Shown: one piece after another, positions 3,180 to 51,880 of the stretch
Layout: each line of letters begins with the position of its first letter
Position numbering within the stretch: position 1 is the first letter of the stretch
Assembly: GCA_963842805.1 (NCBI GenBank)
Contig: CAWJIA010000016.1
Coordinates: 83,075 to 147,074 of the forward strand
Length of the DNA stretch: 64,000 nt
Source: an uncultured Chloroflexia bacterium
Lineage (GTDB): Bacteria; Chloroflexota; Dehalococcoidia; GIF9; UBA5629
Direction of reading: 5' to 3'
Notes under the pieces: generated by a model
Seen by the model: only the letters and a program-made list of their open reading frames with translations
What the model was told of the DNA's origin: nothing
The model's database searches: none
Translations under genes and position numbers: made by a program

Positions 3180-3180
3180 A

Positions 3181-5007: not shown

Positions 5008-5661
5008 CTATTGCTCAGCCAGTGTTTGCAACATCATATGTATGAAAGCTAAAACGTCATCTTGTCTACTACTTGCTCTGAGTCCAATCTGCCTGCTTAG
5101 CCTATTGTACTCATCCATTCTTTGTGCCTCGTTTAGGGTTAGCAATTCCTTGCCTTTGATATCATTGTTGCCCAGTGCCTTTTTTAGTCGACCCAGTAAC
5201 TCTGTCATAAGCTCAGTACCAACATTCTCGAGCTTATATTCATGTTCCGCTCTGTCTCCTTCAGCTCGTATATTCCCCTCATTCAATCTATATGTTTTTG
5301 TTTGGACGCCATCCGTCACTGATACCTTCGATATCTCTACTGGTAAGCGACCAATCAACTTGACCGCTGGATAAGGGCCTGAACGAGCAATCACGAGCCT
5401 ACCAATATCTTCAGTCCTACGAAGCACATAATACTTAGACAGTTCGACACATTCCTGTTCAAGACCCATTACCTCGCTCCAGCCATCCTTCCACTCCAGT
5501 AAGAGATATTTTTGTGGCGCTGGCGTCACCGCTGAGTCTGGCAACCCGGCCAACTTGGAAAGTTCGGTTTGTAAACTGCTACTCAATTTGGAGAATTCAA
5601 TCTCTCTCTTGGACCCGTCACCAAATTCAACGATCAGTTGCTGTGGTTTACTTTTCGACAC
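5008..5661 (-). CDS. hypothetical protein (operon partner of UbiD/HAD-like genes)
   Basis: 217-aa ORF with no recognised motif. Its start lies 1 nt after the stop of the upstream HAD-like gene. Confidence 0.45.
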   Translation of the reverse strand: MSKSKPQQLIVEFGDGSKREIEFSKLSSSLQTELSKLAGLPDSAVTPAPQKYLLLEWKDGWSEVMGLEQECVELSKYYVLRRTEDIGRLVIARSGPYPAVKLIGRLPVEISKVSVTDGVQTKTYRLNEGNIRAEGDRAEHEYKLENVGTELMTELLGRLKKALGNNDIKGKELLTLNEAQRMDEYNRLSRQIGLRASSRQDDVLAFIHMMLQTLAEQ

Positions 5662-5662
5662 T

Positions 5663-6433
5663 TCATTTCCCCTTTACAATATCTTTAAGTTGAGAGAAAC
5701 TAGATATGACATAGTCAGCTTTTGACGGGCCCCAGTCAAAATAACCGGTATACTGAATTGTCTTGAACCCCCGCTGCCGTGGTGGTTCAATGTCTGTCAT
5801 GATCTTATCCCCTACCATTACTGCCTCCGAAGGCTCAATTCCCTGGCTGCTCAAATCCTCAACCAGTAAGTCATATAGCTCCCCTGATTCCTTAAATCGA
5901 CCTTTGTATCTCGCATCAACCGAGCCATCTCTCAAATCAACTTTACCCTGAGGCGTAATTAACTTACTAAAGTACTTTATGAGTTTTTTCCTTTGCAGAA
6001 ACATTGTCACGACATCTGTACCAATTGGCCCGAGCGTCTTCTTCATCTCAGCAACGATACAAACAGTAATACCTTCATCAAGGAGGTATTGAAGCGTTTC
6101 TTCAGCGCCTTCCGCTGGCTTCAGAAGTTGCTGCTCTTTTTGCAGGAAAAGATTCATCGCTTCCTGATCATTGTCAAATACATAACTCAAGATTTCGTCT
6201 TTATGCCCTTCCTTAACGTTCGAGTAAGTTCCATATTTCTCTTTCAAATTGTGATACTTCTCGATCGTCTCATCAATAAGTTCAGGTTTGCCAATCTCTT
6301 TGCAAATGTCTCCAAACATCAACGGATTTCGTAGTCCTCGGGGGTCCATGAGACATTGCCCGAAATCTATCCCGCACCATTTCACCGTAATTCCCATTGT
6401 GCAAACCTCCCAATTGTTTATAAGATACGCCAC
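5663..6433 (-). CDS. HAD-like hydrolase superfamily protein (phosphatase-family subunit?)
   Basis: C-terminal VMVGDKIMTDIEPPRQRGFKTI fits HAD motif IV (GDxxxD). The N-terminal GIDFGQ is only a partial match to motif I. Confidence 0.5.
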   Translation of the reverse strand: MAYLINNWEVCTMGITVKWCGIDFGQCLMDPRGLRNPLMFGDICKEIGKPELIDETIEKYHNLKEKYGTYSNVKEGHKDEILSYVFDNDQEAMNLFLQKEQQLLKPAEGAEETLQYLLDEGITVCIVAEMKKTLGPIGTDVVTMFLQRKKLIKYFSKLITPQGKVDLRDGSVDARYKGRFKESGELYDLLVEDLSSQGIEPSEAVMVGDKIMTDIEPPRQRGFKTIQYTGYFDWGPSKADYVISSFSQLKDIVKGK

Positions 6434-6490
6434 GCTTCAAAGCTTCCATCAATTCAGTTTTTCACGAAATAAGTGAATCTCGTTAGAAAC

Positions 6491-7921
6491 TTATGCCAGG
6501 CTTTCTAACCCATATTCTTTCCATTCTTTTTGTATTTTCTCGACCAGCTTTGCATCGAGTCGAATCACTTCCGGTTTTTCCTGCCAGTGATAAGGAATAC
6601 AACCATCTACCAACAGCGTTGAGTTCAGCGCATATGGATACTTCAATTTAGGCTCTATTCCAGGATCGAGGTAGCTACCTCGGCGTCCTTTAAGTATCTC
6701 AACACTCCTATCCGGGTCAAATCTCTGAATCACCGACCACAAAACCTTGGTCCAATCATCCGGCTCAATGTCATCATCCACGGTGATAAATAGCTTATTT
6801 GCATAACTACCCATAGGGGTGGAAGCGGCTGCACTCAAAACTTGCTTTGAATGACCAGGGTACATTTGCTTCACAGAGATGATGAAAAATCTTTGACTCG
6901 CGGGATGCATAGCCACCGACTTAATTCCTGGTATGCCAGTATCCTTAAGTTCTTTCCATAGACGGCCACAACGACCGATTGCTGCCATAATGTGCGTATC
7001 TGTAATGGGTCGTCCTACAGTGCTGGCCAAATAAATAGGGCTGTTCCGGTGTAGAACCCGTTTTACTTCAAAAACAGGTTTATTGGTTGGCTTTCCCGAA
7101 TAATACCCCGTTGCCTCACCAAACGGTCCTTCTAGTTGCCAATTGGCTCTATCAGGGTCGATCTCCCCTTCAAGTACAATCTCTGCATCTGCCGGTATGG
7201 GAAGATCAGTCAAATCGCTAATCACGACTTCAATGGGAAAACCTGCAATTGCCCCAGCAATATCATATTCAGATACGCCAAAAGGGGCTTCAGTCCCAGA
7301 GACTGTAAAAAGCACGGGAGGGCCACCGAATACTGCTGCAACTGGCATTTTCTTTCCCTTCTGCGCCCATTTCTCCATGTGAACCCATCCGTGCTTTCCC
7401 GGCTGAATCATAAGTCCAACATGATTCTTATCCAAAAGCTGGCCTCGATAGGTTCCAAGATTTACCCAACCGGTATCGGGGTCTTTTGTTACCAGGCAGT
7501 AGTTCGTGCAGATGTATCTTCCTCCATCATCAGGATAGAATTTGGGAACCGGGAATTTGAGTAAGTCGATGTTGTCTCCTTCAATTATATTCTCAAATAC
7601 AGGGCCCTTTCCCACCTTCTTTGGAGGCACACCCTGTCTGCTTATTAAGTCGACCCATTTCGTAGTTATCTCATGTAGCGAAGATGAAGGCGGCATATCG
7701 AATTCACGGGCAAAACGCCCAAGGGTACCGTACTGGCTGGTTAAAACGGGAATATCACAATCTTTGACATTTTCAAATAGGAGAGCGGGACCACCCTTTT
7801 CCTCAGTAAGTTTCGCAACGTGAATCAGTTCAAGATTCCAATCAACTTGCCTTTTGATTCGTATCAGGTCTTTATTCTTCTCCAGCTTGCTTATAAACTC
7901 TCTCGTATCCTTCGATGCCAT
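6491..7921 (-). CDS. UbiD-family (prFMN-dependent) reversible decarboxylase/carboxylase
   Basis: 476-aa ORF. The N-terminus MASKDTREFISKLEKNKDLIRIKRQVDWNLELIHVAKL and overall profile are typical of the UbiD family, including phenylphosphate carboxylase subunits. Confidence 0.85.
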   Translation of the reverse strand: MASKDTREFISKLEKNKDLIRIKRQVDWNLELIHVAKLTEEKGGPALLFENVKDCDIPVLTSQYGTLGRFAREFDMPPSSSLHEITTKWVDLISRQGVPPKKVGKGPVFENIIEGDNIDLLKFPVPKFYPDDGGRYICTNYCLVTKDPDTGWVNLGTYRGQLLDKNHVGLMIQPGKHGWVHMEKWAQKGKKMPVAAVFGGPPVLFTVSGTEAPFGVSEYDIAGAIAGFPIEVVISDLTDLPIPADAEIVLEGEIDPDRANWQLEGPFGEATGYYSGKPTNKPVFEVKRVLHRNSPIYLASTVGRPITDTHIMAAIGRCGRLWKELKDTGIPGIKSVAMHPASQRFFIISVKQMYPGHSKQVLSAAASTPMGSYANKLFITVDDDIEPDDWTKVLWSVIQRFDPDRSVEILKGRRGSYLDPGIEPKLKYPYALNSTLLVDGCIPYHWQEKPEVIRLDAKLVEKIQKEWKEYGLESLA

Positions 7922-8360
7922 GCTTAAGCCTCCTTCTTGTTATCGTACCTTTCATAGTAAAAGTGCCGCCAACGCTTCGACCAATGTCAAGATCAATTGC
8001 AGTCTCACAAAATGAGGACACGCTATCTAGGTACTTATCCTACAAACACAAGTGCAGAGACATTATTTCGAATCTCTGCCATGGTGCTTCTTAGGTAGCA
8101 TTTCTAAGATATAGTTCTCCAGTTTCTTTTTTTGGGGAGGCTTCTTTTTCTTAGTCTTGGGTTCCTCTTCTGTTTCCATCCTGAATCTGTACTTTTTATT
8201 GTCTTTTGATTCCATGCTTGCACCCCTCTAGTTTATTCTTGATAATCCAAGATGCCACTCAATTGATCACACAATAACGATAAAGACAAAAACGTCCAAT
8301 TAGGACTTAGCAACATCACAAAGATCATGATAGCGATTTATCATCTATGTAAGCGATTTA

Positions 8361-9389
8361 TCATCTGATCCAGAATGTGTTCACTAACATTCTTTTTTTG
8401 ACGATGACGGTCACTGGGCGGGCCTGGACTAAAAAAACACTTTCGGGAAATAATAAATCCGAGTCCACTGCCCACTCTATATCAATGGGTAGCCCGTACT
8501 GCAATTCAACAAATCTCGCAAATTCGGCTATCTTGGTCGCCTCTTCATCGCCAATACAGGCAAGGCCCTGTTTCTCCAATGGAACATCCTCCTCTTCTGT
8601 TCCAGTAGTCTTGAAGGAATACTGTCTTAACTTGGTACTAATTTCCTTGTCCTCTAGGGTCAATGTCTTCTTATCTACAACAAAGATATCGGGACTTACA
8701 ACGCCCTGAACCACGCTCTCGCCAACACCCCAATTGCCCTCGAGAATGATTCTTGTGTCATCGCCAGTCACCGGGTGAATCGTGAAGCCAACGCCGGCAG
8801 CTCGAGAATTTACCATTTTTTGCACTAACGCTGATATTGAGCCTCCTAAAACCCCTAGCTTGTTTTGTATTCGATAGGATATGCACCGCGTATTGAATGC
8901 GCTGCTCCAACATAGCCTTACGTTTTCCAAAAGGTCTTCTTCGCCTCTTACGTTAAGGTAGGAGTCATACTGGCCCGCAAAGCTTGCTGTCGGCATATCC
9001 TCGGCTACGCCACTAGACCTCACCGCAACTGGAAGGTTGACAATACCGCAACTTTGGCACAAGCCTTCATATTCATGGCATATGGCTTTTTGTAACGCCT
9101 TTGGTATTTCTCTGGAAATAATTATGCCGCGTATAGCTTGGCTCACCTCACCCATCTCAGCCAAATCTTTAGGTCCTTCGGGGAACTCATGCAGATATAG
9201 ATTTATCTCCTCACCCGCGCCCGTTTCATCTAGAAAGAAATCATAAGCTTCAGTTGTGACTGCAAAGCCTGGGGGTACACGCACCCCTAGCTTGATCATC
9301 TCTCCCAAATTTGCACATTTACCTCCAACCAATCGAGTATCAGTCTTGCAGACATTGTCTAGCAATGCCACCCATTTTTTTTCTGCCAT
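8361..9389 (-). CDS. PEP-synthase N-terminal-like ATP-binding (ATP-grasp, PPDK_N) domain protein; phenylphosphate synthase beta-subunit-like
   Basis: WVALLDNVCKTDTRLVGGKCANLGEMIKLGVRVPPGFAVTTEAYDFF matches the start of PEP synthase / pyruvate,water dikinase. At 342 aa it is only the nucleotide-binding half. Confidence 0.75.
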   Translation of the reverse strand: MAEKKWVALLDNVCKTDTRLVGGKCANLGEMIKLGVRVPPGFAVTTEAYDFFLDETGAGEEINLYLHEFPEGPKDLAEMGEVSQAIRGIIISREIPKALQKAICHEYEGLCQSCGIVNLPVAVRSSGVAEDMPTASFAGQYDSYLNVRGEEDLLENVRLCWSSAFNTRCISYRIQNKLGVLGGSISALVQKMVNSRAAGVGFTIHPVTGDDTRIILEGNWGVGESVVQGVVSPDIFVVDKKTLTLEDKEISTKLRQYSFKTTGTEEEDVPLEKQGLACIGDEEATKIAEFARFVELQYGLPIDIEWAVDSDLLFPESVFLVQARPVTVIVKKRMLVNTFWIR

Positions 9390-9529
9390 TATTATTACCC
9401 CTCCTTCTGGGATCCTGCTTTACGTAATACCAAACGCATTTTCATGACTATTTCGGGTAAGCCCTCTAGTTTTCAACACCCATAATTCAATTTAGACTTC
9501 TGTCTCTTCAACTCCTCTTTGCCTTCTTC

Positions 9530-9662
9530 AGTTTTACAGAATAGTGCACAAGTACATCGTTGTAAATCACCCAGAGGCGCTATTTGCGCAAGACCAAGGG
9601 CTAGCGTGGAATAGCTCTAATGTATTACTGGCTCCCATATTGCTACTCCATATTTCTTAGCC
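9530..9662 (-). promoter_or_regulatory. repeat element copy 1: putative sigma70 promoter plus activator palindrome
   Basis: On the minus strand: -35 TTTACA (plus 9561-9566), 17-nt spacer, -10 TATTCT (plus 9538-9543). Palindrome GCGCTATTTGCGC / TTGCGCAA at 9577-9591. It lies upstream of the gene 8361-9389. Near-identical copies occur at 19092 and 24545. Confidence 0.6.
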
Positions 9663-9983
9663 GCCTTTCAAGGCTTTAAAAAGATTGTCCAATGTAGCTG
9701 AGAGCCTTGCAGTACGTGAGTAAATTACCATGCTATCGGCTTTCCAGTTGATGGCAACAACGGTGACATCACCATCAGCACGTTCCAGGAATGGCAATGG
9801 AACCGCGGCATCAATCCGTTTAGCATCAATGATAATAACAGCTGGCTTAAGTTTGGTAGCAAGGCGAACTCCGCTTGATGTATTGGTAGCTGTGGTCACA
9901 GTCATTGATGTCGCCTGTTGGACGATTAACCTCAGCCCATCCCTCTGTAATGGCTGGTTTGATATAACTAGTGCTAATTGCAA
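9657..9983 (-). CDS. stand-alone degenerate response-regulator receiver-like domain protein
   Basis: LALVISNQPLQRDGLRLIV aligns to the NarL-type receiver N-terminus (IVDDHPLVREGLRLL) with DD replaced by SN. KPAVIIID retains the phospho-acceptor Asp position. A 5'-deleted paralog fragment is at 19196-19390. Confidence 0.45.
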   Translation of the reverse strand: MQLALVISNQPLQRDGLRLIVQQATSMTVTTATNTSSGVRLATKLKPAVIIIDAKRIDAAVPLPFLERADGDVTVVAINWKADSMVIYSRTARLSATLDNLFKALKGG

Positions 9984-10132
9984 AACACGCCACCCTCCTA
10001 ATAATCCAGACCTAGCGCATTAGATGATTTGCCAACAGGGCATACGTCAACCGTAGTATTTTCTCCGCACGTCAGCTCTTATTTCTATCACTGACCTTTT
10101 GCTATCTTCTTGCATTGCTATCGCACTCTTAG

Positions 10133-10507
10133 CTAAAGGCATGCTGCTAAAAACTCGTCAACCAACCTGTCGGCGTTCTCCAATATATCGGCAATTTCTC
10201 CCTTGGTTATCTTATCGACATGGATACCCACAACAACACAGACAGCCTTTTGGGTAAACTTACTTATTGAATGAGCCGCACTTTGGGCAATAACATCATC
10301 CTTATGTCCCATCCTGGTAATTACTGACGCAGAAGTCCTTTTTTCCTTTTGGTCGTACTCACCTACAGCGACGGCGCCAATATGAGCGTTTTCATTGAAG
10401 ATACATACTATCAGGTTGTCGCCCAAGTGACGCGCTGACAGATATACTCGTGCTCTGCCTTTTCCTAAAGCTATCTCGTGTATCTTCATTACCTCAAGGA
10501 AAGCCAA
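10133..10507 (-). CDS. hypothetical small protein immediately downstream of ubiX
   Basis: 124-aa ORF. Its start is 3 nt after the ubiX stop, indicating an operon. No family recognised with confidence; it may be a UbiD/UbiX-system accessory subunit. Confidence 0.45.
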   Translation of the reverse strand: MAFLEVMKIHEIALGKGRARVYLSARHLGDNLIVCIFNENAHIGAVAVGEYDQKEKRTSASVITRMGHKDDVIAQSAAHSISKFTQKAVCVVVGIHVDKITKGEIADILENADRLVDEFLAACL

Positions 10508-10509
10508 TC

Positions 10510-11079
10510 TTACTCAGATGGAAGACCGCTCCATCGGTGAAACAAATTATGCTCTATTCCCAAAACGTCTAATACCTTTCCCACCGTGTGGTCGATGACG
10601 TCTTGAATCGTTTTAGGTTTATGATAAAAAGCAGGAATGGGTGGCATAATGACAGCCCCCATCTCAGACAGCTTCTCCATTTGCCTGATATGACCTAAGT
10701 GAAGGGGCGTTTCTCTTATTAAAAGAATTAACTTCTTGCGCTCCTTTAGTGTGACGTCTCCGGCACGGATCAACAAGTTTTCATTATACGAGTTAGCCAA
10801 TGCAGACATTGTTCTTATTGTGCATGGCGCTATTACCATGCCATCTTGCCTGAACGAACCGCTCGAGACGCAAGCTCCAATGTCGTTGATGTTGTAGTAG
10901 AAGCTGGCCATAGCTCGTATTTCGCTAAGTTGCCGATCAATTTCGTGTCTTATAACTAGTTGTCCAGCTTCAGAAATGATGAGATGCGTTTCAATCTCTT
11001 TCATAGTAGAAAGCACCTCCAGCAATCTAACGCCATATATAACACCTGATGCACCTGTAATCCCTATTATCAGCCGCAT
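10510..11079 (-). CDS. ubiX: flavin prenyltransferase UbiX/Pad1 (prFMN synthase)
   Basis: MRLIIGITGASGVIYGVRLLEVL is a typical UbiX flavoprotein N-terminus. At 189 aa the length fits. Confidence 0.85.
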   Translation of the reverse strand: MRLIIGITGASGVIYGVRLLEVLSTMKEIETHLIISEAGQLVIRHEIDRQLSEIRAMASFYYNINDIGACVSSGSFRQDGMVIAPCTIRTMSALANSYNENLLIRAGDVTLKERKKLILLIRETPLHLGHIRQMEKLSEMGAVIMPPIPAFYHKPKTIQDVIDHTVGKVLDVLGIEHNLFHRWSGLPSE

Positions 11080-11193
11080 GTTCGACCTTCCATCTGCAAA
11101 GATGCTAGAGTGAGCAATTCATCAACTGTTTTTTCGCGCTCAAGCAGGTTAGTCTTATTGTAACAACTTTTTGTTGATATATGTTCCACGACT

Positions 11194-12432
11194 TCACCTA
11201 ACGCTTTTCACCTTTACATTTTGAACAATTAGTCGGAACTCATCTTCGGTCAATAAACGCCCAACCTCATAGCCCTTTTGTTTAACTTTCTCGATAACCT
11301 CTCGACCTTCTTCCTCGGTCAGTTTCGTGCCCATTTTATCTGCCCATAATAGAACATTATCCAGTCCGCTTTTCTTGCCAATTACCACCTCAGGCTCTTT
11401 ATGTCCAACGAACTTGGGCGCAACAGGGTGCATAATTGTGGGGTAATGCAATTGGGTGTTTTTGAACATACTGACAGTGAGTCCGCCTTCCATAGCATTT
11501 AATAGATCTCCTACAAACGGTCGATTAGGCGGCATTCCAGCAAGCTCATCCACCAGCTTAGAAAGCTCAGTAAGTTTATCGTATTTGATGCCTACATCGA
11601 TTCCGTACAGGATCAAAAGCGCCATCACAGTCTCCGCCATAGAGCAGTTACCACTCCCCTCACCTATCCCATTAACTGTTGAATGAATGACCTCGCCACC
11701 AGCTAGTACAGCCATCACAGTATTGGCTGAAGCCATACCAAAATTGTTATGAAAGTGGATTTCCAATGGTTTCTTTATCTTTTCCTTGACAGTCTTTGTG
11801 TAGTAGCTTGCACCGTGCGGAGACAGTGCACCGAAAGTATCCACCAGTGTGAGAGCATCCATGTGTCCTTCCATAGCGATTTTGTTAATAACATTTAGAT
11901 ACCACTCCATACCCGCTCTGGTAGCGTCCATGGGGAAAAAAACTACATACAGTCCCTGTTCATGCGCAAATCGAGTTGCTTCAATTGGAAGGGCTAGGGC
12001 TTTCTCCAAGGGCCAGCCGTATGCATGTTTGATAAGATGTTCAGAGACAGGGATCTCTATCTGTACGCCACTCACCCCACAATCAACTGCCCTTTTTACA
12101 TCATCAACCATACAGCGTGAGAAGCAGAAAATTTGGGGGCCGAGGTTGCGTTTCACTATCTCCTTAATTGCAGCTTCATCTTGAGGAGTCACTGCCGGCA
12201 TTCCAGCTTCAATCCGGTGAACCCCAGCTTCAGCCAACTTTTCTGCAATGCGAATCTTATCATCCGTAGTGAACACGATGCCAGCTTGCTGCTCCCCGTC
12301 ACGCAAGGTAACATCATGAATTTTGACCTGTTTTGGGGGCTTGAAATCATCGGTCACCTCTGGTAAAAAGTTCCAAGGACTGACAAACCAATTTTCTGTG
12401 TTCCATGGTTGCCCCTTATCTATTTTCGACAT
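11194..12432 (-). CDS. DRE-TIM metallolyase (HMGL-like; 2-isopropylmalate/homocitrate synthase family) protein
   Basis: KIHDVTLRDGEQQAGIVFTTDDKIRIAEKLAEAGVHRIEAG is the pyruvate carboxyltransferase/HMGL-like domain. A downstream HFHNNFGMA motif is present. Exact specificity is unknown. Confidence 0.65.
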   Translation of the reverse strand: MSKIDKGQPWNTENWFVSPWNFLPEVTDDFKPPKQVKIHDVTLRDGEQQAGIVFTTDDKIRIAEKLAEAGVHRIEAGMPAVTPQDEAAIKEIVKRNLGPQIFCFSRCMVDDVKRAVDCGVSGVQIEIPVSEHLIKHAYGWPLEKALALPIEATRFAHEQGLYVVFFPMDATRAGMEWYLNVINKIAMEGHMDALTLVDTFGALSPHGASYYTKTVKEKIKKPLEIHFHNNFGMASANTVMAVLAGGEVIHSTVNGIGEGSGNCSMAETVMALLILYGIDVGIKYDKLTELSKLVDELAGMPPNRPFVGDLLNAMEGGLTVSMFKNTQLHYPTIMHPVAPKFVGHKEPEVVIGKKSGLDNVLLWADKMGTKLTEEEGREVIEKVKQKGYEVGRLLTEDEFRLIVQNVKVKSVR

Positions 12433-12470
12433 AAATGCCTCCTTTTCGTATCATCTTCTGCTTCTTGATT

Positions 12471-13484
12471 CTAATGTAGTGCTTTCTCAAGAATCTCCAC
12501 CAAGTCAATAACCTTCACGTTGGCCTTTGTATGCCTTGCTGCTCTCTTAAGTTGCATCATACAACTGGGGCAACTTGTTGCGATTATAGAGGCTCCTGTT
12601 GCTAATAATTCCTCGAGTCTTCCCATAGCCAACCTCTGAGACAAAGCTGGATGACTCATCTCTAGTCCACCTCCACCGCAGCAAGTAGACCATTGCTTAC
12701 ACTGCTCAGTTTTTGGCTCCCTCAACTCCAAACCCTCAATACGGCTCATAATCTCTCTGGGCTCGTTAATGATATTGAGATATCTGGAAAGTTGGCAGGG
12801 ATCATGGTAGGTTACCACAAGCTTCTCATGTAGTTTTGGTTTTATTTCTGTTTGTTGTAATCTCTCAGCAACAATTTCAAGGAAATGCTTGACCTCGAAG
12901 TCATAGTGCTCAATGAATTTTGGGTAAAGATTTTGCAGAGAGGAAGTACAAGCTGGGATGATCCCTATTATTTTCTTTACTCTAAGAGACTTGAGCAATT
13001 CGAAGTTCTTTTTGGCGTTTTCGATATACTTATCTACAAAACCCGCATAATAGATCGGAGATCCACAGCATGGCTCATCCTCGTATAGATACCCTATATC
13101 AACTGTAAGCTTGCGAAGAACATAGACTGCGCTCGTAAGACATTTTGTATACGGGTCTTGTTTCCCGGCCGAAGTAAGCTCGGCGGTGATGCTCGTTATG
13201 TCAATACCCGCTTTGCCAAAAGTCTTGCCCAGACTTATGCCTTTGTCCATACCTAGACCTATTCTCTCCATCCTGCCAACTGCATCCATCATTCCCTCAG
13301 CATACCTCATGAATTGATAGCCACAACCAGCGAAAAATGTGTATTCGGCTTGTTTTGGTAGATCGAGACCTTTTGCCCATGCAGCCTTATCTTGAGCAAC
13401 GCCCACAATGTTGCCTTCGTTTATTATATTGTCCTTGATGTAGTTGTAACCTTCAGGCACTATGCCCTTGAGAGATTTGTTCAT
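12471..13484 (-). CDS. CCG-domain Fe-S protein (GlcF/HdrD/LutA-like C-terminal half)
   Basis: Two cysteine-rich CCG motifs: CCGSPIYYAGF and TCCGGGGLEMSHPAL. The likely start is ATG at 13482-13484 (MNKSLKG), which overlaps the stop of the upstream ferredoxin-domain ORF as ATGA. The track ORF extends to 13613. Confidence 0.7.
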   Translation of the reverse strand: MNKSLKGIVPEGYNYIKDNIINEGNIVGVAQDKAAWAKGLDLPKQAEYTFFAGCGYQFMRYAEGMMDAVGRMERIGLGMDKGISLGKTFGKAGIDITSITAELTSAGKQDPYTKCLTSAVYVLRKLTVDIGYLYEDEPCCGSPIYYAGFVDKYIENAKKNFELLKSLRVKKIIGIIPACTSSLQNLYPKFIEHYDFEVKHFLEIVAERLQQTEIKPKLHEKLVVTYHDPCQLSRYLNIINEPREIMSRIEGLELREPKTEQCKQWSTCCGGGGLEMSHPALSQRLAMGRLEELLATGASIIATSCPSCMMQLKRAARHTKANVKVIDLVEILEKALH

Positions 13485-13825
13485 CTTTTTCCACCTTCCT
13501 GAGTTTGCGCATCTCTTATTAATAGAGTTCTGGCTTTTACTATGACGTCTGTGGGGTTTGAACCAGTGCCTACTGCCTTGCATCGTTCTTGACACCGGCG
13601 GCAAATTGCACATGAAAATAACAAGTCGCTCAGCTCCTCCGTACTACCCAATCCGTATTTGAAGTGATAGTTTATAGCCAAAATCCTACCTATAGGACTA
13701 TAACTTAGCCATCCCTCATATGTAGGGCAGGCGCTGACGCACATTCTACATTTAAAACATCTCGCTACGCTATCCAGCATTTGAATTTCTAGCTCGTTTA
13801 AACCATTAACAATCATGTCATTCAC
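13481..13825 (-). CDS. 2x[4Fe-4S] ferredoxin-domain protein (GlcF N-terminal half-like)
   Basis: CFKCRMCVSACP and CAICRRCQERC motifs. It sits between the GlcD-like and CCG-domain genes with start/stop coupling. Confidence 0.55.
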   Translation of the reverse strand: MNDMIVNGLNELEIQMLDSVARCFKCRMCVSACPTYEGWLSYSPIGRILAINYHFKYGLGSTEELSDLLFSCAICRRCQERCKAVGTGSNPTDVIVKARTLLIRDAQTQEGGKR

Positions 13826-15239
13826 CTTCCAAATTCCCGGGATTCAATATATTGTTCGGATCGATTGCCTTCTTTATATTCACAAGCATCGAATATGCTG
13901 CTTCACCATATCTTTCTCTCAAGAAGGGTATTCGCCATGCAGTTTGTCCCACTTCTCCAGAGGCACAACCCCACTTTAAATTCAACTCCTTTTCAAGTAA
14001 GAGGGCCTCTTTTCCACATTGCATTGTCTTGGCCGGCGGCCAATTTTCTGGCGTCACCCATAGCGCGTGCAAGTCACATGTACCTATATGGCCGTACATA
14101 AGTATCTTGGCTTCATGTAGTACGCCATAGCTGTGGTCTATCTTTATGTACTGCAAGGCATCGGCAAGATGACTCAATGGCACTGCAGCCTCAAGTCCTC
14201 CCGAGTTATAAAGTTTTTCCTTTCCCTCGCCGGTTTGCAAAATGTTTAATATGTTGTCACGTGCTTCCCAATAGCTTTCTCTCTCATGCCACGATGTAAC
14301 AACATGAGCATCGACCGCCCTTTCGGTCTGAAAGACTTTCACTATCTCATGGGCGCGGCGATCGGCCTCCTCCTGGGTGTAACCTGTTGTTACCGCCAAA
14401 GCCATATTACCTTGTGGTTTTCCCAAACCCCTCAACTTGAACGGTGCTACACAGGCTTCCGCATCTAAGTACTCTCCATATAAAGGGGGCGGTAATTTCT
14501 GTCTGTAAATCTTCATAAAAGCATGTGCGATATCGGTAATCTCTGGGAAAAAACCAACAACATTAGCCTTCTTGAAATCTGGAAGCAGACGCATTCTAAT
14601 TCTGGTGATAACTCCGAACAACCCCTCGGTTCCAGCGAAAAATCTCGTATAATCAATCCCAGCAGGCTTCCTGATGCTTCTGGTACCGGTTTCTATAATT
14701 TCACCATTGGGTAAAACTACCTCGACACCCATCACGTGGTCTATTATTTTCCCCAAACATATATCGACCATGTGCCCAATAGTGTTTATGGCAACTGCAC
14801 CACCTATTGTGGCTGAGAATTTACTACCTATATTCATAGGCAGAAAATATCCGTGCTCTAGTAGCGCTCTTTCTAAATCAAGTTGATTTACTCCGGCACC
14901 AACCTCGAAATATAAATCCTCTTCGTACATTTCAAAGTGTTTAAGCCCCTGCGTGCTGAGGAGTATGCTACCTGGGCGTTTTGGTCTTGATGAACCCTTA
15001 AAAGCAGTACCTGAACCGTGAATGTAAACAGGAATTCTTTGTTTATTTGCGTATTGCAACATCTTAGCCACTGCTTGTGTTGAAGTAGGCTTGACAACCA
15101 CAAGAGGTATCTGGCTAGCTTCAAGGTCGGCTCCTCCTGAATCGTGGCCATACCCTATCCTTTCATAGATGCTGTCTGAAATGTTTTCCTTGCCGACAAT
15201 GGATGTCAAATCTTGGATTAGACTTTTGTGCTGAACCAT
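13818..15239 (-). CDS. FAD-linked oxidase (GlcD/D-lactate dehydrogenase-like, PCMH-type FAD-binding domain)
   Basis: 473-aa ORF with LEASQIPLVVVKPTSTQAVAKMLQYANKQRIPVYIHGSGTAF, the pattern of an FAD_binding_4 domain. Confidence 0.75.
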   Translation of the reverse strand: MVQHKSLIQDLTSIVGKENISDSIYERIGYGHDSGGADLEASQIPLVVVKPTSTQAVAKMLQYANKQRIPVYIHGSGTAFKGSSRPKRPGSILLSTQGLKHFEMYEEDLYFEVGAGVNQLDLERALLEHGYFLPMNIGSKFSATIGGAVAINTIGHMVDICLGKIIDHVMGVEVVLPNGEIIETGTRSIRKPAGIDYTRFFAGTEGLFGVITRIRMRLLPDFKKANVVGFFPEITDIAHAFMKIYRQKLPPPLYGEYLDAEACVAPFKLRGLGKPQGNMALAVTTGYTQEEADRRAHEIVKVFQTERAVDAHVVTSWHERESYWEARDNILNILQTGEGKEKLYNSGGLEAAVPLSHLADALQYIKIDHSYGVLHEAKILMYGHIGTCDLHALWVTPENWPPAKTMQCGKEALLLEKELNLKWGCASGEVGQTAWRIPFLRERYGEAAYSMLVNIKKAIDPNNILNPGNLEGE

Positions 15240-15390
15240 ATAAATTACTCTCCCTCTTTACTGTGTTGTCTCAAATATGCAAGTATTCAGGTCGGTTCGG
15301 AAGTGTCTAGAATTCCCCTCCGGATAAATTTTCGTAAGCTATTAAATAAACTGTTAACTGCATTCGCGTCAAGAATCGTTGTAATGACAT

Positions 15391-16053
15391 TCAAGGAACC
15401 GACCTGCGGCTTTTTGGGTCACCACTGCTGTTTGGATAGTTTAAAAGACTCAAAATTTTGTCTACCCCTTGCTTCAAATATTGCTCAATCTCACTAACGG
15501 TTTGCTTAGCAAATTCATCAGAAAAGGCGTAATCACAAGTATCAGGAATATATGCCGGAATGTTTAGAGAATCTTCTATGACGGTGGGCCCTGACACCGC
15601 GAAAACCTCTCTAAAGGTAAACACCTTCCCCTGGCTTTGCGGATATTGAGATAATATTGCAGCTTTCTGTACATGTTCCATAGTAATGATCAGATGCGCT
15701 CGGTTCGCCATCTTTCCATCGAAAGGTGCTGACCTGTGACTTGAGATATCTATACCTTTATTAAGGCAAATGTCTATGATTTGTTGGGGAGGATGACTAC
15801 CGAACCTAGGTACGGGTATACCCAATTGGTTTGATAATTGCACGACGTCTTCAGTAACGATTCCTGCGGATGACACTGCGATACTGCCGGCCAGATTAAT
15901 ATAATCTTGTTGTAGCAGTTTGCATAAGAAATACTCTGCGATCGCACTTCGGCAACGATTGAAGGTGCAAGTAAAGATAACCAACCGCCACTGCTTGTCT
16001 GCTGTTTCAATTTGTGAACTTCGCTCTATCGTACTGTGATTTGCGTTATGCAT
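15391..16053 (-). CDS. low-molecular-weight phosphotyrosine phosphatase / ArsC-family protein
   Basis: P-loop VIFTCTFNRCRS (CX5R(S/T)) is the LMW-PTP signature. At 220 aa it is somewhat long, so the start is uncertain. Confidence 0.6.
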   Translation of the reverse strand: MHNANHSTIERSSQIETADKQWRLVIFTCTFNRCRSAIAEYFLCKLLQQDYINLAGSIAVSSAGIVTEDVVQLSNQLGIPVPRFGSHPPQQIIDICLNKGIDISSHRSAPFDGKMANRAHLIITMEHVQKAAILSQYPQSQGKVFTFREVFAVSGPTVIEDSLNIPAYIPDTCDYAFSDEFAKQTVSEIEQYLKQGVDKILSLLNYPNSSGDPKSRRSVP

Positions 16054-16079
16054 AACTTTATCTCATGCAGTATGAGAAA

Positions 16080-16856
16080 TTAAAGCGTTATTCTGTTTTC
16101 AGCAAAAAATATTTGCCCCGATATGTTTTCGTACTTGGTTAGATTGACAACGAAACGCGCAAACTCTTCGGGTGTTTGATTGCGTCCTAGAAGACCTCCT
16201 CCCACCTCACCTGGCCTGAAGACCCACTCCATTCTAGGATGAACGACAGGTCCCGGAATTACGATATTTACTTTTATGTTGTATTGCCCCAATTCTATCG
16301 CAGCAGTTCTACTTAAGCCAATGAGCCCACCCTTAGCTGCGGCGTAGGCCGCGTTGCCTGCTCGTCCCCGCAATCCAATAGCTCCGCCAATATTTATAAT
16401 ATGTCCGCCTCCCTGCTTTATCATGTGCGGAGCTACAGCTTTAATACAATTGAAGGGGCCAGTTAATTGTGAACTTAGAAACCATCCCCATTCATCATTT
16501 CCCATATCGACTATTGACGTGCCTTCCTTTTTACTGCCAGTAGCAAATTCGGTATTCATAGGCCAAGCCCCGGCATTATTCACAAGAATATCGATGCTTT
16601 TCCACATCTTCAACGTTTCTGCAACCATTGCCTCCACTTCTTGATAATTCCCGACATCGGCTTTGAATGCGACGGCCGCACCTGGACCTGCCCTATTGAT
16701 TTGCTCAGCAATACCCTGAGCTGCGTCTTTGGACCTATTGTAGTTTACTATCACCTTAGCTCCTTTGGTCGCAAACTGGAGCGCCATCTGACTTCCCAAG
16801 CCACCAGAGGCACCAGTAACTATTGCAATCCTTCCTGTTAACTTATCGTTGTCCAT
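16080..16856 (-). CDS. short-chain dehydrogenase/reductase (SDR)
   Basis: IAIVTGASGGLGSQMALQFATKGAKVIV (TGxxxGxG), with a YxxxK region. Confidence 0.8.
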   Translation of the reverse strand: MDNDKLTGRIAIVTGASGGLGSQMALQFATKGAKVIVNYNRSKDAAQGIAEQINRAGPGAAVAFKADVGNYQEVEAMVAETLKMWKSIDILVNNAGAWPMNTEFATGSKKEGTSIVDMGNDEWGWFLSSQLTGPFNCIKAVAPHMIKQGGGHIINIGGAIGLRGRAGNAAYAAAKGGLIGLSRTAAIELGQYNIKVNIVIPGPVVHPRMEWVFRPGEVGGGLLGRNQTPEEFARFVVNLTKYENISGQIFFAENRITL

Positions 16857-17085
16857 CTATTACTCCCAAGACATTATCATTATGCACTAAATATTACGCT
16901 GTAACCGTGTCGCGGCTTTGTTTACCAAATCAATATCAAAGCCGAATTTAGCATGTGGTCATAAGTCACTAACTGAAACCACCGACTGGGGCTTCCTTAT
17001 CCCTATAAAAGCCCCAGTCGGCGTTCAAAACCCTTTATAACTAATTCCTGTCTGAATCCGGGGCACCGCCAACAGATAAAGGTGT

Positions 17086-18762
17086 CTAGTTACTAAGAAT
17101 TTTCACTGTGCCCTGATTAGCGTCCATCTTTATCTTCATCCCAGTTTTCAGCTTTTTCGAGGCTTCCTCGTTCGTGTTAATTATCACAGGTATACCGGAC
17201 TCACGACCCACTATAGCAGCATGCGATAGGCTTCCTCCGTGATCGACAATAGCCCCTTTGATTATGCTAAAAAGCGGTGTCCAGCTCGAGTAAGTGGTGA
17301 CGGCAACTAAGATATCACCGGCTTGAACTTCTTTGAATTGTGCCTCGCTGAGTACAACTCTTGCCGTTCCTTCAACAACGCCAGGAGCACCACAAATGCC
17401 ATAAAGATCGGCCTTCAGTTCGGGTCTCACCTTTGGTATTGCACCTACAACTAGCTTCTCCAAAATAATATCTGTAACAATAAGCGGACCTGCCTGCTCA
17501 ATGGTCATTTTGCCGAAAGTCATGGGTGGTATGGTCTTGCAATTTTCCTCCCATTTTGCGCGTCGCCGGCTGACTGTCTGGCGGTGGTTGAACATATTGG
17601 GCATTAGAATTGCGCGTTCGATCTCAGGCGGCGTCAAAAAGAATATGTCTTCTGGGTCATCAATGCTCTTAGCCTTTGCAAACCTTCTGCCACACTCTTT
17701 AAGTAATCTGCGCATTAAACCATTAGCGTGATGATCGAGATAGTGGTTATGCTCCGGACTAAAGCCTACAGCTTTTGGAGTTATTTCTAGTAGATGTTTG
17801 AACCAATCCCTTTTGTCTCGCGGGATCTTACTGATAGCTTCTTTTGCTGCTTCGTCTCTTTGCTTGAGCGAGTCCTTCATCAGCTCATCCTGGCTAAACT
17901 TTCCTCCTTTAGTCAAAGCCTGCTTCACAAATAATATGGCAGGCGTGGGATCTTCTATCCAGGGTGCAGAGGCAGGCCCGTAGAATTCGGTGAACCTTGG
18001 CACTCTCCAACCACGGGTCTTCAAGAAGTCACGAAATTCCTTCACCCACTGTTTACCCTTGGCACTTTGCTCCAACGCCGCGAGTACATCATGTTCCGGG
18101 GTCTTTGCGAACACATTGCTTAATCCCATTTCTTCTGCCTTGACACCTAACTGGTATAGCATCCTGTCCGATTTTTTGAGTTGGTTGTCGTAGCCGCTGA
18201 CCAACCTAAGGAATAGCGGGTCAGTATCACTAATGCCGAGCAGTTCCCGGGCCAGTTCCTCGAACAATCCATAAATGTGGTAAGCTGGGTACATGCCCAA
18301 GAAATGGAGTAACCACATCCGTTTGTTCATTTTCATCATTTCGTCGAAGTGAACCGTCAACTGACCATCGCTAAGCTTATCAAGTTCAAGTGGGTCAAAA
18401 CGATTCCAGTAACCTATCATTTCATCACAAATTGCCCCCCAGGCCTTATCATAGTCCTCAACCCAAGGCTTCATGGCTTCCCTGAACGCAGGTTCTCGAC
18501 TCTTCCTCTCCGCCTCTGACTTTATCACGACAGGTCCAAGATAACAGTAGCTGTTAACTAATGTTGAATAAGAGCCTTTGCTGCTCGGTAAGGATAACAT
18601 CTCCGGTCCTAGAGTCCAACCTGGGGAAAGATGATTTATCCAACACCAGGCGTAAGATGGAGTCCACGGTGGAATGCTGTGAGCAGTATCGAGAATCCAA
18701 ATGTCAAATCCTTCTAGGTCACGTTTTTCATCGTATTCTAATACTGAATATTCCCAACTCAT
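17086..18762 (-). CDS. PEP-utilizing-enzyme family protein with C-terminal phosphohistidine swivel domain; phenylphosphate synthase alpha / rifampin-phosphotransferase-like
   Basis: The C-terminal GICGAPGVVEGTARVV...VTTYSSWTPLFSIIKGAIVDHGGSLSHAAIVGRESGIPVI is the PEP-utilising mobile domain with the catalytic His. The N-terminal ~440 aa is of unknown type (substrate-binding?). Confidence 0.7.
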   Translation of the reverse strand: MSWEYSVLEYDEKRDLEGFDIWILDTAHSIPPWTPSYAWCWINHLSPGWTLGPEMLSLPSSKGSYSTLVNSYCYLGPVVIKSEAERKSREPAFREAMKPWVEDYDKAWGAICDEMIGYWNRFDPLELDKLSDGQLTVHFDEMMKMNKRMWLLHFLGMYPAYHIYGLFEELARELLGISDTDPLFLRLVSGYDNQLKKSDRMLYQLGVKAEEMGLSNVFAKTPEHDVLAALEQSAKGKQWVKEFRDFLKTRGWRVPRFTEFYGPASAPWIEDPTPAILFVKQALTKGGKFSQDELMKDSLKQRDEAAKEAISKIPRDKRDWFKHLLEITPKAVGFSPEHNHYLDHHANGLMRRLLKECGRRFAKAKSIDDPEDIFFLTPPEIERAILMPNMFNHRQTVSRRRAKWEENCKTIPPMTFGKMTIEQAGPLIVTDIILEKLVVGAIPKVRPELKADLYGICGAPGVVEGTARVVLSEAQFKEVQAGDILVAVTTYSSWTPLFSIIKGAIVDHGGSLSHAAIVGRESGIPVIINTNEEASKKLKTGMKIKMDANQGTVKILSN

Positions 18763-19648: not shown

Positions 19649-20356
19649 ATGGAATTGCCAACGCGCATATCCAAAAGGATTGTACCTGTGGCAGCAAGGA
19701 TAATTATAGCGTACCCGAGAGAGTTGGGCAGGGAAGGCCTCGCAAGGACACTGACTGATAGGACTGAGTTTCACATAGTAGGCAGGTGCTCCACTGGTCG
19801 GAAGACGATAGAGCGGGCTGGTCGGATCAAACCGGATATCATAATTCTGAGTTCAGAAATTTCCGAGTGCGGCTGCATCGAAGTTATAGAGGGGGTAAAA
19901 CAACTTTCACCGAAGACTCACATAATTATCCTCAGCGTATTCCAAGACGGGAAGGAACTTTCGCTAGCCCTGAAAGCAGGTGCCAAAGCATATTTGGGCC
20001 ATCGCACTTCAGTCCGCGAGATCATATCAGCCATTCGTCATGTGCAGACCGGCGGAGTCGTTATCAGCGCTAATTTCGTGGACAAACTGCTCGCTTCTGG
20101 TGTGAAATCCGAGATAGACTATGACTTAAGTGACCGAGAAGTAGATATCATCAAACTGCTGGCTAAAGGCCTTTCTAACGAAGAAATTGCGAGCACTTTG
20201 TTTATCTCAAAACACACAGTGAAGGTACATTTGAGCCATATTATGGAGAAGATGCATGTGCATAGTCGGCAACGGGCCGCCATTTTGGCAATACAGTCAG
20301 GGGTCGCAATTAATGAGCCCGAAACCAAAGTACCTCAAAAGCTAGGGACAAGTTGA
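19649..20356 (+). CDS. LuxR/NarL-family response regulator with atypical (phospho-acceptor-less) receiver domain
   Basis: The C-terminal LSDREVDIIKLLAKGLSNEEIASTLFISKHTVKVHLSHIMEKM is a LuxR HTH. In the receiver, IIIAYPRELGREGL has DD replaced by AY, and PDIIILSSE has Ser at the phospho-acceptor position. Confidence 0.7.
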   Translation: MELPTRISKRIVPVAARIIIAYPRELGREGLARTLTDRTEFHIVGRCSTGRKTIERAGRIKPDIIILSSEISECGCIEVIEGVKQLSPKTHIIILSVFQDGKELSLALKAGAKAYLGHRTSVREIISAIRHVQTGGVVISANFVDKLLASGVKSEIDYDLSDREVDIIKLLAKGLSNEEIASTLFISKHTVKVHLSHIMEKMHVHSRQRAAILAIQSGVAINEPETKVPQKLGTS

Positions 20357-21782: not shown

Positions 21783-21852
21783 GGAACGTACTCTCCTCTA
21801 TAAGACAAATCTAGAAACGCTCGACCTCGATAGGCTAATTGTTTCTCCCGGC

Positions 21853-23823: not shown

Positions 23824-23837
23824 AGTAACTTTACCTC

Positions 23838-51820: not shown

Positions 51821-51880
51821 TCGCCATTCTCCGCACTTTCCGGATGGATTTCCCCAATTACATAAAATATCCTAAAATTA

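Follow-up and report, generated by a model that had tools for sequence, protein, structure and literature searches.

A divergent two-component kinase and a single PpcB-family UbiD in a Dehalococcoidia gene cluster: a candidate variant of the phosphorylate-then-carboxylate strategy

The 64,000-nucleotide stretch of contig CAWJIA010000016.1 analysed here (hereafter the window; uncultured Chloroflexia bacterium, placed by GTDB in the Dehalococcoidia) carries a gene cluster in which a two-part small-molecule kinase, consisting of a 558-amino-acid (aa) H-component and a 342-aa I-component, is combined with one UbiD-family (de)carboxylase dependent on prenylated flavin mononucleotide (prFMN), a UbiX, a HAD-fold protein and a 217-aa protein (Table 1). 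Our preferred reading, held with slightly more belief than doubt, is that this cluster serves to phosphorylate and then carboxylate a phenolic substrate, or at any rate some enolisable hydroxy compound, at the expense of ATP. It is most likely a variant of a known strategy, in which a divergent two-part kinase serves one carboxylase with unusual helpers, and not a new kind of system; its departures from the known systems are the divergent kinase clade, a HAD protein with a DxG motif, the coupled 217-aa protein together with a small peptide, and a co-conserved redox set. An earlier note on this DNA had given correct coordinates for the open reading frames (ORFs), all on the reverse strand, and the genes that it listed are present, but its gene set omitted the co-conserved short-chain dehydrogenase/reductase (SDR), the FAD/iron-sulfur (FeS) dehydrogenase, the Old Yellow Enzyme (OYE) homolog and AorABC.

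The UbiD reached 462.8 bits on TIGR02724, the equivalog model for PpcB, about 6 bits short of the cut-off of 468.95, compared with 277 bits on the VdcC model, 217.9 bits on the model for ubiquinone UbiD and 208.5 bits on the alpha-subunit (PpcA) model TIGR02723, for which the cut-off is 564.6. It was 48–53% identical to proteins named PpcB by their sources, which are mutually 48–82% identical, and these comparisons place it, as far as sequence can, with the beta subunits of phenylphosphate carboxylase and not with ubiquinone UbiD. The earlier note had named, as the outcome that would speak against its reading, a 558-aa protein clustering with antibiotic phosphotransferases and a UbiD clustering with those of ubiquinone biosynthesis; since the UbiD sides with PpcB on the first and third of the scores above, this combination is not what we found. 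The closest solved structure was 7pda (E 4e-90), with lower scores against Fdc1 structures, and the motifs NLGTYR (at residue 154), GKHGW (175), SEYD (217) and EGPFGE (264) align with E. coli UbiD and 7pda. The active-site motifs thus aligned are intact, including what we take, via Fdc1 numbering, to be the prFMN and metal ligands and the Glu-Arg-Glu network. A second UbiD, that is, a paralogue of the PpcA type, was not found in the 64-kb window. The presence of one UbiD here had been noted before and described as unusual; the count stands, but the description does not, as L092, L093, L102, L103 (our own handles are used for the loci compared) and Desulfatiglans anilini demonstrate, and a single UbiD beside a split kinase is common.

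The ATP-grasp gene is located directly upstream of a PpcB-family UbiD gene in the window and in L092, L093, L094, L102 and L103. The gene order in L093, a canonical-type cluster with one UbiD from a Burkholderiaceae metagenome-assembled genome (MAG), is XylR-type regulator, PpsA, PpsB, UbiD, UPF0261, CBS protein and UbiX; L092 has PPDK_N, UbiD, CoA ligase, UPF0261 and UbiX, and both L102 and L103 have PPDK_N, UbiD and UPF0261. A counterpart of the cluster is L094, a 13.9-kb contig from the metagenome of a sulfate-methane transition zone (a different metagenome from that of the window), in which a single compact run comprises kinase H (72% identical to the window protein), SDR (72%), FAD enzyme (74%), FeS protein, kinase I (74%), a small ORF, UbiD (77%), HAD (74%), the 217-aa homologue (40%) and OYE (73%). 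Because L094 keeps all of these in one run, the kinase genes travel together with the carboxylase triad and the redox genes as one unit.

By sequence and modelling, the kinase has the architecture of a two-component small-molecule dikinase related to rifampin phosphotransferase. The catalytic His514 of the 558-aa protein lies in GGSLSH, within GGSLSHAAIVGRE, and is invariant across 19 homologues; the phosphohistidine swivel domain at this C-terminus (PEP-utilizers, residues 480–551) had been recognised in the earlier note, as had the nature of the 342-aa protein as an ATP-grasp half on its own, PPDK_N being its only domain. The N-terminal domain of ~440 aa, described then as of unknown type, can now be given a relationship: Pfam PF27448 (Rph_4th) is precomputed on all homologues of the 558-aa protein, phmmer aligned residues 226–556 with residues 558–866 of rifampin phosphotransferase 5fbs (E 1.4e-18), and a Foldseek search with an AlphaFold2 (AF2) model (predicted local distance difference test score, pLDDT, 78) showed a full-length match solely to rifampin phosphotransferase (5fbu, 5hv1; E 1.5e-14, ~590 aligned columns). 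It is predicted to be helical and to bind the substrate, as the corresponding domain of rifampin phosphotransferase does. The 342-aa protein matched the ATP-grasp domain of the same enzyme (5hv6, 5fbs) at E about 5e-54, and was 44% identical to PpsB of L093 and 57% identical to the partner protein in L082. Domain content, phmmer and Foldseek therefore agree with the suggestion that the split has its parallel in phenylphosphate synthase alpha/beta as well as in the domain arrangement of rifampin phosphotransferase.

The H-component is nevertheless distant from the phenolic kinases. It scored 202.9 bits on NF006153 (cut-off 578), failing every PRK08296 cut-off (NF006149–NF006153, a ~610-aa family), and 85.8 bits on RIF_Ptrans_rph (cut-off 999), below the PRK08296 models, whereas the canonical-type PpsA of L093 (611 aa), which is 24% identical to it, scored 1212 bits on NF006152; its relatives likewise stay at about 200 bits on NF006153. 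By the scores and the identity alike, the 558-aa protein is not a PpsA orthologue, against what the earlier comparison with phenylphosphate synthase could be taken to say. It falls outside the characterised phenolic H-component subgroup (24% identity to the PpsA type; HpeH, CreH and PpsA are mutually about 45% identical, PMC12167813) and into a separate, very large clade of ~560-aa proteins (555–564 aa), found mainly in Desulfobacterota and Chloroflexota MAGs. The neighbourhoods of this clade were counted at 80 GTDB loci (best hit 48% identical): an ATP-grasp partner was present within 10 kb at 74 of them and an SDR within 10 kb at 54, and a pair of CrtI-like FAD enzymes was present at 45. The ATP-grasp gene of the window contains a run of 7 A's (8385–8395) near its 3' end that shifts the frame; with 8 A's the C-terminus would be KKKNVSEHILDQMINRLHR, matching the 349-aa sister proteins almost exactly, with QKK in place of KKK. 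The shift stems from a homopolymer error in the assembly or is genuine, and affects solely the tail after PPDK_N; Logan contig L001, of the same organism, likewise splits the ATP-grasp gene.

Split kinases with H and I components have been described as HpeH/HpeI, CreH/CreI and PpsA/PpsB, and in PpsAB, CreHI and HpeHI the beta-phosphoryl group of ATP is transferred via the swivel His to a small molecule, with conversion of ATP to AMP and Pi (PMC12167813). The cluster in the window shares with the PpsABC/PpcABCD system of Thauera aromatica and Aromatoleum a stand-alone ATP-grasp protein and a substrate-binding/swivel-His protein, an ATP-grasp gene adjoining that of the UbiD, a UbiD close to PpcB by sequence, dependence on UbiX and a HAD-fold companion. 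In contrast to PpsABC, its H-component has about 50 aa fewer, shares 24% identity and falls under none of the PRK08296 models; the window has neither a CBS-type PpsC nor a PpcA paralogue, no homologue of the gamma subunit was found, and its HAD protein, with DxG, would not be of the delta family. Additional to PpsABC/PpcABCD are the 217-aa protein, the 50-aa peptide, the LpdD-like protein, the SDR, the FAD/FeS enzyme, the OYE and AorABC.

Two other pathways invite comparison. The aniline pathway of D. anilini has an alpha-type kinase of ~63 kDa that is 27–28% identical to Pps-alpha, and its ani cluster contains one PpcB-like gene, although a second UbiD from another locus was needed in vitro (PMC7500099). 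Judged by these published figures, the phenylphosphoamidate synthase PasAB of this pathway resembles the window in having a two-component kinase, the same alpha size and distance from Pps-alpha and one clustered PpcB-like UbiD, and Pas-alpha would be the sole characterised enzyme of a size and distance similar to those of the 558-aa protein. The ani cluster differs from the window in having a CoA ligase and a 4-hydroxybenzoyl-CoA-reductase-like enzyme and in lacking the HAD, 217-aa, SDR, OYE and AOR (aldehyde oxidoreductase) genes. The Hpe pathway (HpeHI-HpeCBA-HpeD) consists of a two-component kinase, a carboxylase and a HAD-type phosphatase, and in the Aromatoleum p-ethylphenol cluster hpeHI homologues stand beside the xccBCA carboxylase genes (PMC9618137). 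As would be the case here, in the Hpe and the 4-cresol Cre pathways a phenolic OH is phosphorylated, the intermediate is carboxylated or oxidised and a HAD-type phosphatase removes the phosphate (PMC9618137, PMC12167813). The Hpe carboxylase, however, is biotin-dependent, whereas that of the window is a UbiD, and HpeD is NagD-like; moreover, the Hpe and Cre organisms are aerobic, and the FAD enzyme of the window is of the D-lactate dehydrogenase type, not of the p-cresol methylhydroxylase type. The p-ethylphenol pathway of Aromatoleum also uses an SDR alcohol dehydrogenase and a hydroxylase of the FAD_binding_4 family.

The cluster appears to be equipped for cofactor supply. UbiX, whose presence had been reported in the earlier note, scored far above its model cut-off (270.8 bits vs 188 on NF004685), and the gene for a 124-aa protein begins 2 nt after ubiX and is translationally coupled to it. 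This protein and the 217-aa protein had both been left unassigned, which holds for the 217-aa protein, without a family match, but not for the 124-aa protein, which scored 99.6 bits on Pfam PAC_bac and matched the LpdD structures 8p4w, 8pzh and 8po5 (E 1e-4). In the alignment its His42, His68 and Asp70 fall on the NPHIGD and HKD segments of LpdD, and would be equivalent to the LpdD ligands His35, His61 and Asp63. LpdD, whose gene is cotranscribed with that of the UbiX homologue LpdB, acts as a chaperone that binds prFMNH2 (PMC10865409), and the 124-aa protein is predicted to be a chaperone of this type. The ubiX-then-lpdD order, the Pfam family and the aligned His/His/Asp are as in LpdB-LpdD of the Lactobacillus plantarum gallate decarboxylase; unlike there, the similarity is low (E 1e-4) and the partner is a PpcB-type carboxylase in a strict anaerobe, which would need O2-independent maturation.

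The HAD-like protein was also correctly reported before, and its matches to HAD_2, Hydrolase and Hydrolase_like are weak but above the cut-offs. Translation of its ORF (5663–6433) probably begins at Met13 (6397), as it does in relatives. Motif I reads GIDFGQC, with DxG instead of DxD, and both this motif and motif IV, GDKIxTDI, are invariant in the window, L089 and L094; the protein is 67–74% identical in the latter two, where its gene is directly downstream of that of the UbiD. Among the NCBIfam matches of the HAD, 217-aa, 90-aa and 50-aa proteins there was no delta or gamma model of phenylphosphate carboxylase at E<=5, the presence of such models in the release being unconfirmed. On this result and on its DxG motif, the HAD protein would not belong to the delta-subunit family, and the parallel with the phosphatase-family subunit of the known carboxylase cannot be kept in that form; a HAD-fold protein of another subfamily is possibly a functional analogue of the delta subunit.

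The 217-aa gene follows the HAD gene in every lineage seen, with a 1-nt gap or an 8-nt overlap, and the two genes come immediately after this UbiD clade in three lineages. Homologues with 40–45% identity occupy the same position in L089 and L094, and 105 representative clusters were found among 1.84 billion proteins. There was no match in Pfam or NCBIfam, and the AF2 model (pLDDT 78) showed no fold match in the PDB at E<=0.001; repeated weak matches to split-barrel flavin proteins, including the prFMN maturase PhdC, are suggestive in this setting but were not accepted (template modelling, TM, scores of 0.20–0.26). The 217-aa protein is real, conserved and family-less. In L101 (200–1230), a 37% homologue adjoins fragments of a protein weakly matching Amidohydro_2, a family that includes non-oxidative hydroxy-aromatic (phenolic) acid decarboxylases, and the orphan may accompany aromatic (de)carboxylases generally. 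The 50-aa ORF between the ATP-grasp and UbiD genes, also predicted by the gene caller in L001, has no family match; an 81-aa ORF at the same position in L094 (8698–8943) has KY[KR]FR and ML..KHHGR in common with it, and the product may be a small subunit.

On our preferred reading, the 342-aa ATP-grasp protein would present ATP, His514 would accept its beta-phosphoryl group (ATP being converted to AMP and Pi), and the swivel domain would hand the phosphoryl group to a small molecule, at a phenolic hydroxyl, bound in the rifampin-phosphotransferase-like helical domain. The PpcB-family UbiD with prFMN would then add CO2 to the aryl phosphate, while the HAD-fold protein would take or cleave the phosphoryl group and so make the carboxylation irreversible; its DxG motif, without the usual general acid, would favour release of the phenolate. 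The 217-aa protein and the 50-aa peptide are likely to be further subunits or assembly factors. By homology, UbiX would make prFMNH2 and the LpdD-like protein would pass it to the apo-UbiD. Co-conservation suggests that the SDR, the D-2-hydroxyacid-dehydrogenase-like FAD/FeS/CCG enzyme, the OYE and its Fe-S flavoprotein, AorABC and the homocitrate-synthase-like enzyme may process a side chain or the product, and because of these co-conserved side enzymes the substrate is probably not phenol itself but a substituted phenol whose para position is free. In favour of this reading, L082 pairs a kinase relative of 52% identity with a carboxyltransferase and a beta-keto acid cleavage enzyme (BKACE), which suggests that carboxylation after phosphorylation may be the rule in this kinase clade.

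Several results weigh against this reading. In the window, 7.7 kb separates the two kinase genes, and the low identity of the 558-aa protein to PpsA of the PRK08296 type (24%), together with its failure at every PRK08296 cut-off, means that phenolic specificity is not transferable by homology. A UbiD occurs within 10 kb at only 4 of the 80 loci of the ~560-aa clade, even when counted without the 50% coverage filter, which drops UbiD genes cut at locus edges; the distance from the kinase is 8–10 kb in L006, L023, L027 and L038, and UbiX was seen in L049 and L064. The HAD protein shows no relationship to the known delta subunit and is without the second Asp of motif I, no CBS-type PpsC or CoA ligase was present among the family-scanned cluster genes, and tblastn with the CBS protein of L093 found nothing in the 64-kb window. 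In L089 and L090, moreover, where the order is UbiD (73% identity), HAD, a 224-aa protein, an OYE-reductase fusion, AorABC and FAD-FeS-CCG, no kinase gene was found within about 10 kb on either side; a clustered kinase is therefore not a constant companion of the carboxylase module. These two loci are also an argument for supposing that UbiD, HAD and the 217-aa protein act, with no need of phosphorylation, as a reversible decarboxylase of hydroxy-aromatic or acrylic acids, in an aromatic-acid or 2-oxo/2-hydroxy-acid catabolic set (OYE, AorABC, FAD-FeS-CCG, HMGL-like), the kinase genes being passengers on a mosaic island. L095–L098, in which FAD-FeS-CCG-HMGL is followed by a different UbiD clade (36–38% identity) with AorABC, OYE, a TRAP transporter and a CoA ligase, would fit such a decarboxylase, as would the signs of rearrangement in the window (among them a receiver-domain remnant), the distance between its kinase genes and the 217-aa homologue beside the weakly matched Amidohydro_2 fragment. 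We consider it unlikely all the same, since L094 interleaves both kinase genes with those of the UbiD, HAD and 217-aa proteins, PPDK_N recurs directly upstream of PpcB-family UbiD, it is hard to see what a HAD-fold partner would do if the substrate carried no phosphate, and the UbiD scores far higher on the PpcB model than on those of VdcC or ubiquinone UbiD.

The constancy of the SDR near the kinase clade, of which it is the most constant neighbour (54/80 loci, as well as L084 and L094), raises a further possibility, namely that the kinase phosphorylates the enol of a ketone made by the SDR, as PEP (phosphoenolpyruvate) synthase does with pyruvate, that the UbiD carboxylates the vinyl carbon and that the HAD protein dephosphorylates the product to a beta-keto acid, without any ring carboxylation. 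Fdc-type UbiD enzymes act on vinyl or acrylic carbons (PMC8379154), and in the Hpe and Xcc pathways phosphorylation precedes the carboxylation of an acetyl side chain (PMC9618137). L082 (1–9459; kinase relative of 52% identity) also points this way, with an SDR, UPF0261, both kinase genes, a pyruvate-carboxylase-type carboxyltransferase (HMGL-like and PYC_OADA) and BKACE; it suggests a kinase-dependent ketone or beta-keto acid pathway. For the window, however, we regard the enol route as quite improbable: its UbiD lies inside the ring-carboxylating PpcB radiation and scores lower against Fdc1 structures, PEP synthase and pyruvate phosphate dikinase (PPDK) are the sole known dikinases that form enol phosphates, the substrate domain is predicted to be of the rifampin phosphotransferase type and not a PEP/pyruvate barrel, and the scheme itself is only inferred. 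That the 558-aa/342-aa pair has nothing to do with catabolism and inactivates xenobiotics or antibiotics, as a rifampin phosphotransferase split in two, seems hardly credible, even though rifampin phosphotransferase is the sole solved protein to match the H-component over its full length. The RIF_Ptrans_rph score lies far below the cut-off and below the PRK08296 models, the two-component form is so far known from catabolic kinases only (PMC12167813), and the pair is kept in an operon with catabolic redox enzymes and the carboxylase.

A more novel proposal, which we put forward only tentatively and think doubtful at present, is that the UbiD-HAD(DxG)-217-aa unit, possibly with the 50-aa peptide, is a hitherto unrecognised, minimal phosphate-ester-driven prFMN carboxylase, fed by a dikinase of the ~560-aa clade and acting on a new substrate class (a side-chain phenol or an SDR-derived enol phosphate). 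If true, this would show which partners single-UbiD carboxylases of strict anaerobes have been lacking, and would give a function to a kinase clade that is widespread in Desulfobacterota and Chloroflexota. Phenylphosphate carboxylase activity has proved hard to demonstrate in vitro in strict anaerobes with the PpcB-type UbiD alone, and the cluster of the window and L094 together name candidate partners for the carboxylase: the DxG HAD protein, the 217-aa protein, the small basic peptide, and UbiX with the LpdD-type chaperone. They also provide a first functional handle on the ~560-aa dikinase clade, with hundreds of homologues in sediment Desulfobacterota and Chloroflexota, none of them characterised except possibly the aniline kinase, and suggest that Dehalococcoidia of anoxic sediments can gain the capacity for phenolic carboxylation by acquiring an island.

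Table 1. Features of the 64-kb window, with coordinates in the window and the evidence for each assignment
Feature	Coordinates	Strand	Evidence or remark
UbiD-family prFMN (de)carboxylase	6491..7921	-	complete UbiD; phenylphosphate carboxylase beta family (by sequence)
Kinase H-component, 558 aa	17086..18762	-	Pfam PEP-utilizers swivel domain, residues 480-551
Kinase I-component, 342 aa	8361..9389	-	PPDK_N, residues 19-331, 325 bits; no other domain
UbiX flavin prenyltransferase (makes prFMNH2)	10510..11079	-	NF004685, 270.8 bits vs cut-off 188
LpdD-family protein, predicted prFMNH2-binding chaperone, 124 aa	10133..10507	-	Pfam PAC_bac, 99.6 bits vs cut-off 27
HAD-fold protein	5663..6397	-	weak matches to HAD_2, Hydrolase and Hydrolase_like, above cut-offs
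217-aa orphan protein	5008..5661	-	coupled to HAD gene: 1-nt gap; 8-nt overlap in relatives
50-aa Lys/Glu-rich ORF	8063..8215	-	between ATP-grasp gene and UbiD; candidate small subunit
SDR oxidoreductase	16080..16856	-	adh_short, 167 bits
Low-molecular-weight phosphotyrosine phosphatase-like protein	15391..16053	-	LMWPc, 55 bits; between SDR and FAD dehydrogenase
FAD-dependent dehydrogenase, D-lactate/glycolate (GlcD/LctD) type	13818..15239	-	FAD_binding_4 and FAD-oxidase_C
114-aa 4Fe-4S protein, FAD dehydrogenase partner	13481..13825	-	CxxCxxCxxxCP motif
CCG-domain (HdrD/GlcF-like) iron-sulfur protein	12471..13484	-	Pfam CCG, 91 bits; homologues in L095-L099
HMGL-like enzyme, homocitrate/isopropylmalate/citramalate synthase type	11194..12432	-	HMGL-like, 212 bits
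OYE-family FMN ene-reductase	3534..4781	-	Oxidored_FMN, 201 bits
GltD-like NAD(P)H-binding Fe-S flavoprotein	1554..3218	-	NF009410, 528 bits vs cut-off 516; Pyr_redox_2 and Fer4_20
AorA, 4Fe-4S subunit	23838..24344	-	Fer4; resembles PadI
AorB, AFOR subunit	21853..23823	-	AFOR_N, AFOR_C
AorC, FAD/NAD subunit	20508..21782	-	Pyr_redox_2; resembles PadH
UPF0261 protein	9..1220	+	NF002674, 540.6 bits vs cut-off 335; converges on the reverse-strand gene run
NarL/LuxR-type response regulator	19649..20356	+	GerE and Response_reg; divergent from kinase H gene
Doubtful 108-aa ORF, TTG start	9657..9983	-	residues 5-54 match Response_reg, E 0.0017, below cut-off
Large serine recombinase	25924..27498	+	Resolvase, Recombinase, Zn_ribbon_recom; abuts tRNA-Ala
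tRNA-Ala(cgc)	27387..27462		overlapped by serine recombinase, at GC step
Thiolase	38921..40210		housekeeping gene outside island
Formate-tetrahydrofolate ligase	46122..47885		housekeeping gene outside island
981-aa DUF4062 and NACHT protein	within 48875..52426		second low-GC patch, GC 0.38-0.41

The genes around the kinase and carboxylase are mostly redox genes that recur in the related loci. The SDR gene adjoins that of the H-component in L084 and L094 (72–75% identity); it offered no clue to the substrate, its closest solved structures being generic FabG and hydroxyacyl-CoA dehydrogenases. The FAD enzyme, 68–74% identical in L089 and L094, had LctD (E 6e-41) and glycolate oxidase as its closest solved structures, with p-cresol methylhydroxylase at just E 4e-10, and a role as an alkylphenol hydroxylase of the p-cresol methylhydroxylase type was ruled out in favour of the D-lactate/glycolate dehydrogenase type. 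Homologues of its 4Fe-4S partner follow the FAD gene in L089 and L094–L100. The CCG protein probably starts at Met44 (13484), in an ATGA overlap with the preceding gene, and the HMGL-like gene, whose product scored 310 bits on LEU1_arch (below the cut-off of 485) and has homocitrate synthase 6ktq as its closest solved structure, recurs after FAD-FeS-CCG in L095–L100. The OYE is 73% identical and in the same position in L094, while L089 and L098 have a fused OYE-Pyr_redox protein of 667–668 aa there; the GltD-like flavoprotein is the probable electron donor for the OYE. AorABC (20508..24344, reverse strand) is a three-subunit aldehyde oxidoreductase of the AFOR family, a family of tungsten enzymes, and its subunits have counterparts of 59–71% identity in L089 and L099, grouped there with the same genes. 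A curious neighbour of the putative aryl kinase is the LMWPc (phosphatase/arsenate-reductase-like) protein, which has an intact CX5R(S) motif (CTFNRCRS from residue 29, with Cys29) and is absent from L094 and L089; enzymes of the low-molecular-weight phosphatase family hydrolyse aryl phosphates.

The FAD-FeS-CCG-HMGL-UbiD set of L095, L096 and L098 constitutes a recurrent, uncharacterised organic-acid catabolic set. In L098, this set comes after GntR, RidA, OYE-reductase and AorCAB and before genes for a D-2-hydroxyacid dehydrogenase, a CMD protein, a CoA ligase and a TRAP binding protein. The main ~560-aa kinase clade lies in a conserved run in the Desulfomonile-like MAGs L023, L027 and L038, with LysR, two CrtI-like FAD enzymes separated by a 126-aa ORF, SDR, kinase H, kinase I, 219-aa and 106-aa proteins, an HD protein and an AOR-like 606-aa protein, and this run is directly beside UbiD, a 553-aa ORF, UPF0261 and a CBS protein, so that these MAGs connect the kinase and carboxylase modules. 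No literature on the CrtI-like, SDR and kinase neighbourhood was found, and a 2026 paper on a 'Magic cluster' for benzene proved unrelated.

The first 26 kb of the window (block 1–26 kb) have a guanine-plus-cytosine (GC) content of 0.43–0.46 and nearly all genes on the reverse strand, compared with a GC of about 0.49–0.58 over 26–48 kb (one 2-kb bin at 0.46). The serine recombinase at tRNA-Ala is the probable right-hand border of the low-GC island carrying the cluster; since it abuts the tRNA gene at the GC step, the cluster is probably on an integrated genomic island that extends past the start of the window, and this catabolic island was most likely acquired horizontally. Outside the island, the formate-tetrahydrofolate ligase and the thiolase share 90%-identity clusters with proteins labelled as coming from Dehalococcoidia MAGs, and the host is therefore probably a member of the Dehalococcoidia (Chloroflexota). 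The DUF4062 and NACHT protein in the second low-GC patch may be an NTPase of defence or signalling, carried by another small island. The doubtful ORF at 9657–9983 has no counterpart in L094, where the ATP-grasp gene directly follows the FeS gene, and is probably the remnant of a NarL-type receiver domain, left as a rearrangement scar; in comparison with L094, the block CCG-HMGL-UbiX-LpdD appears to be inserted in this region. A scan of 1–20 kb for consensus sigma-70 promoters and terminators gave counts at or below shuffle expectation, and counts for a sigma-54 pattern were at chance level.

At the start of the window, the UPF0261 protein is 33% identical to that of L093. As UPF0261 genes adjoin UbiD or the kinase in the unrelated lineages of L023, L082, L091, L092, L093 and L102, UPF0261 may be an unrecognised component of phenol-type carboxylation systems.

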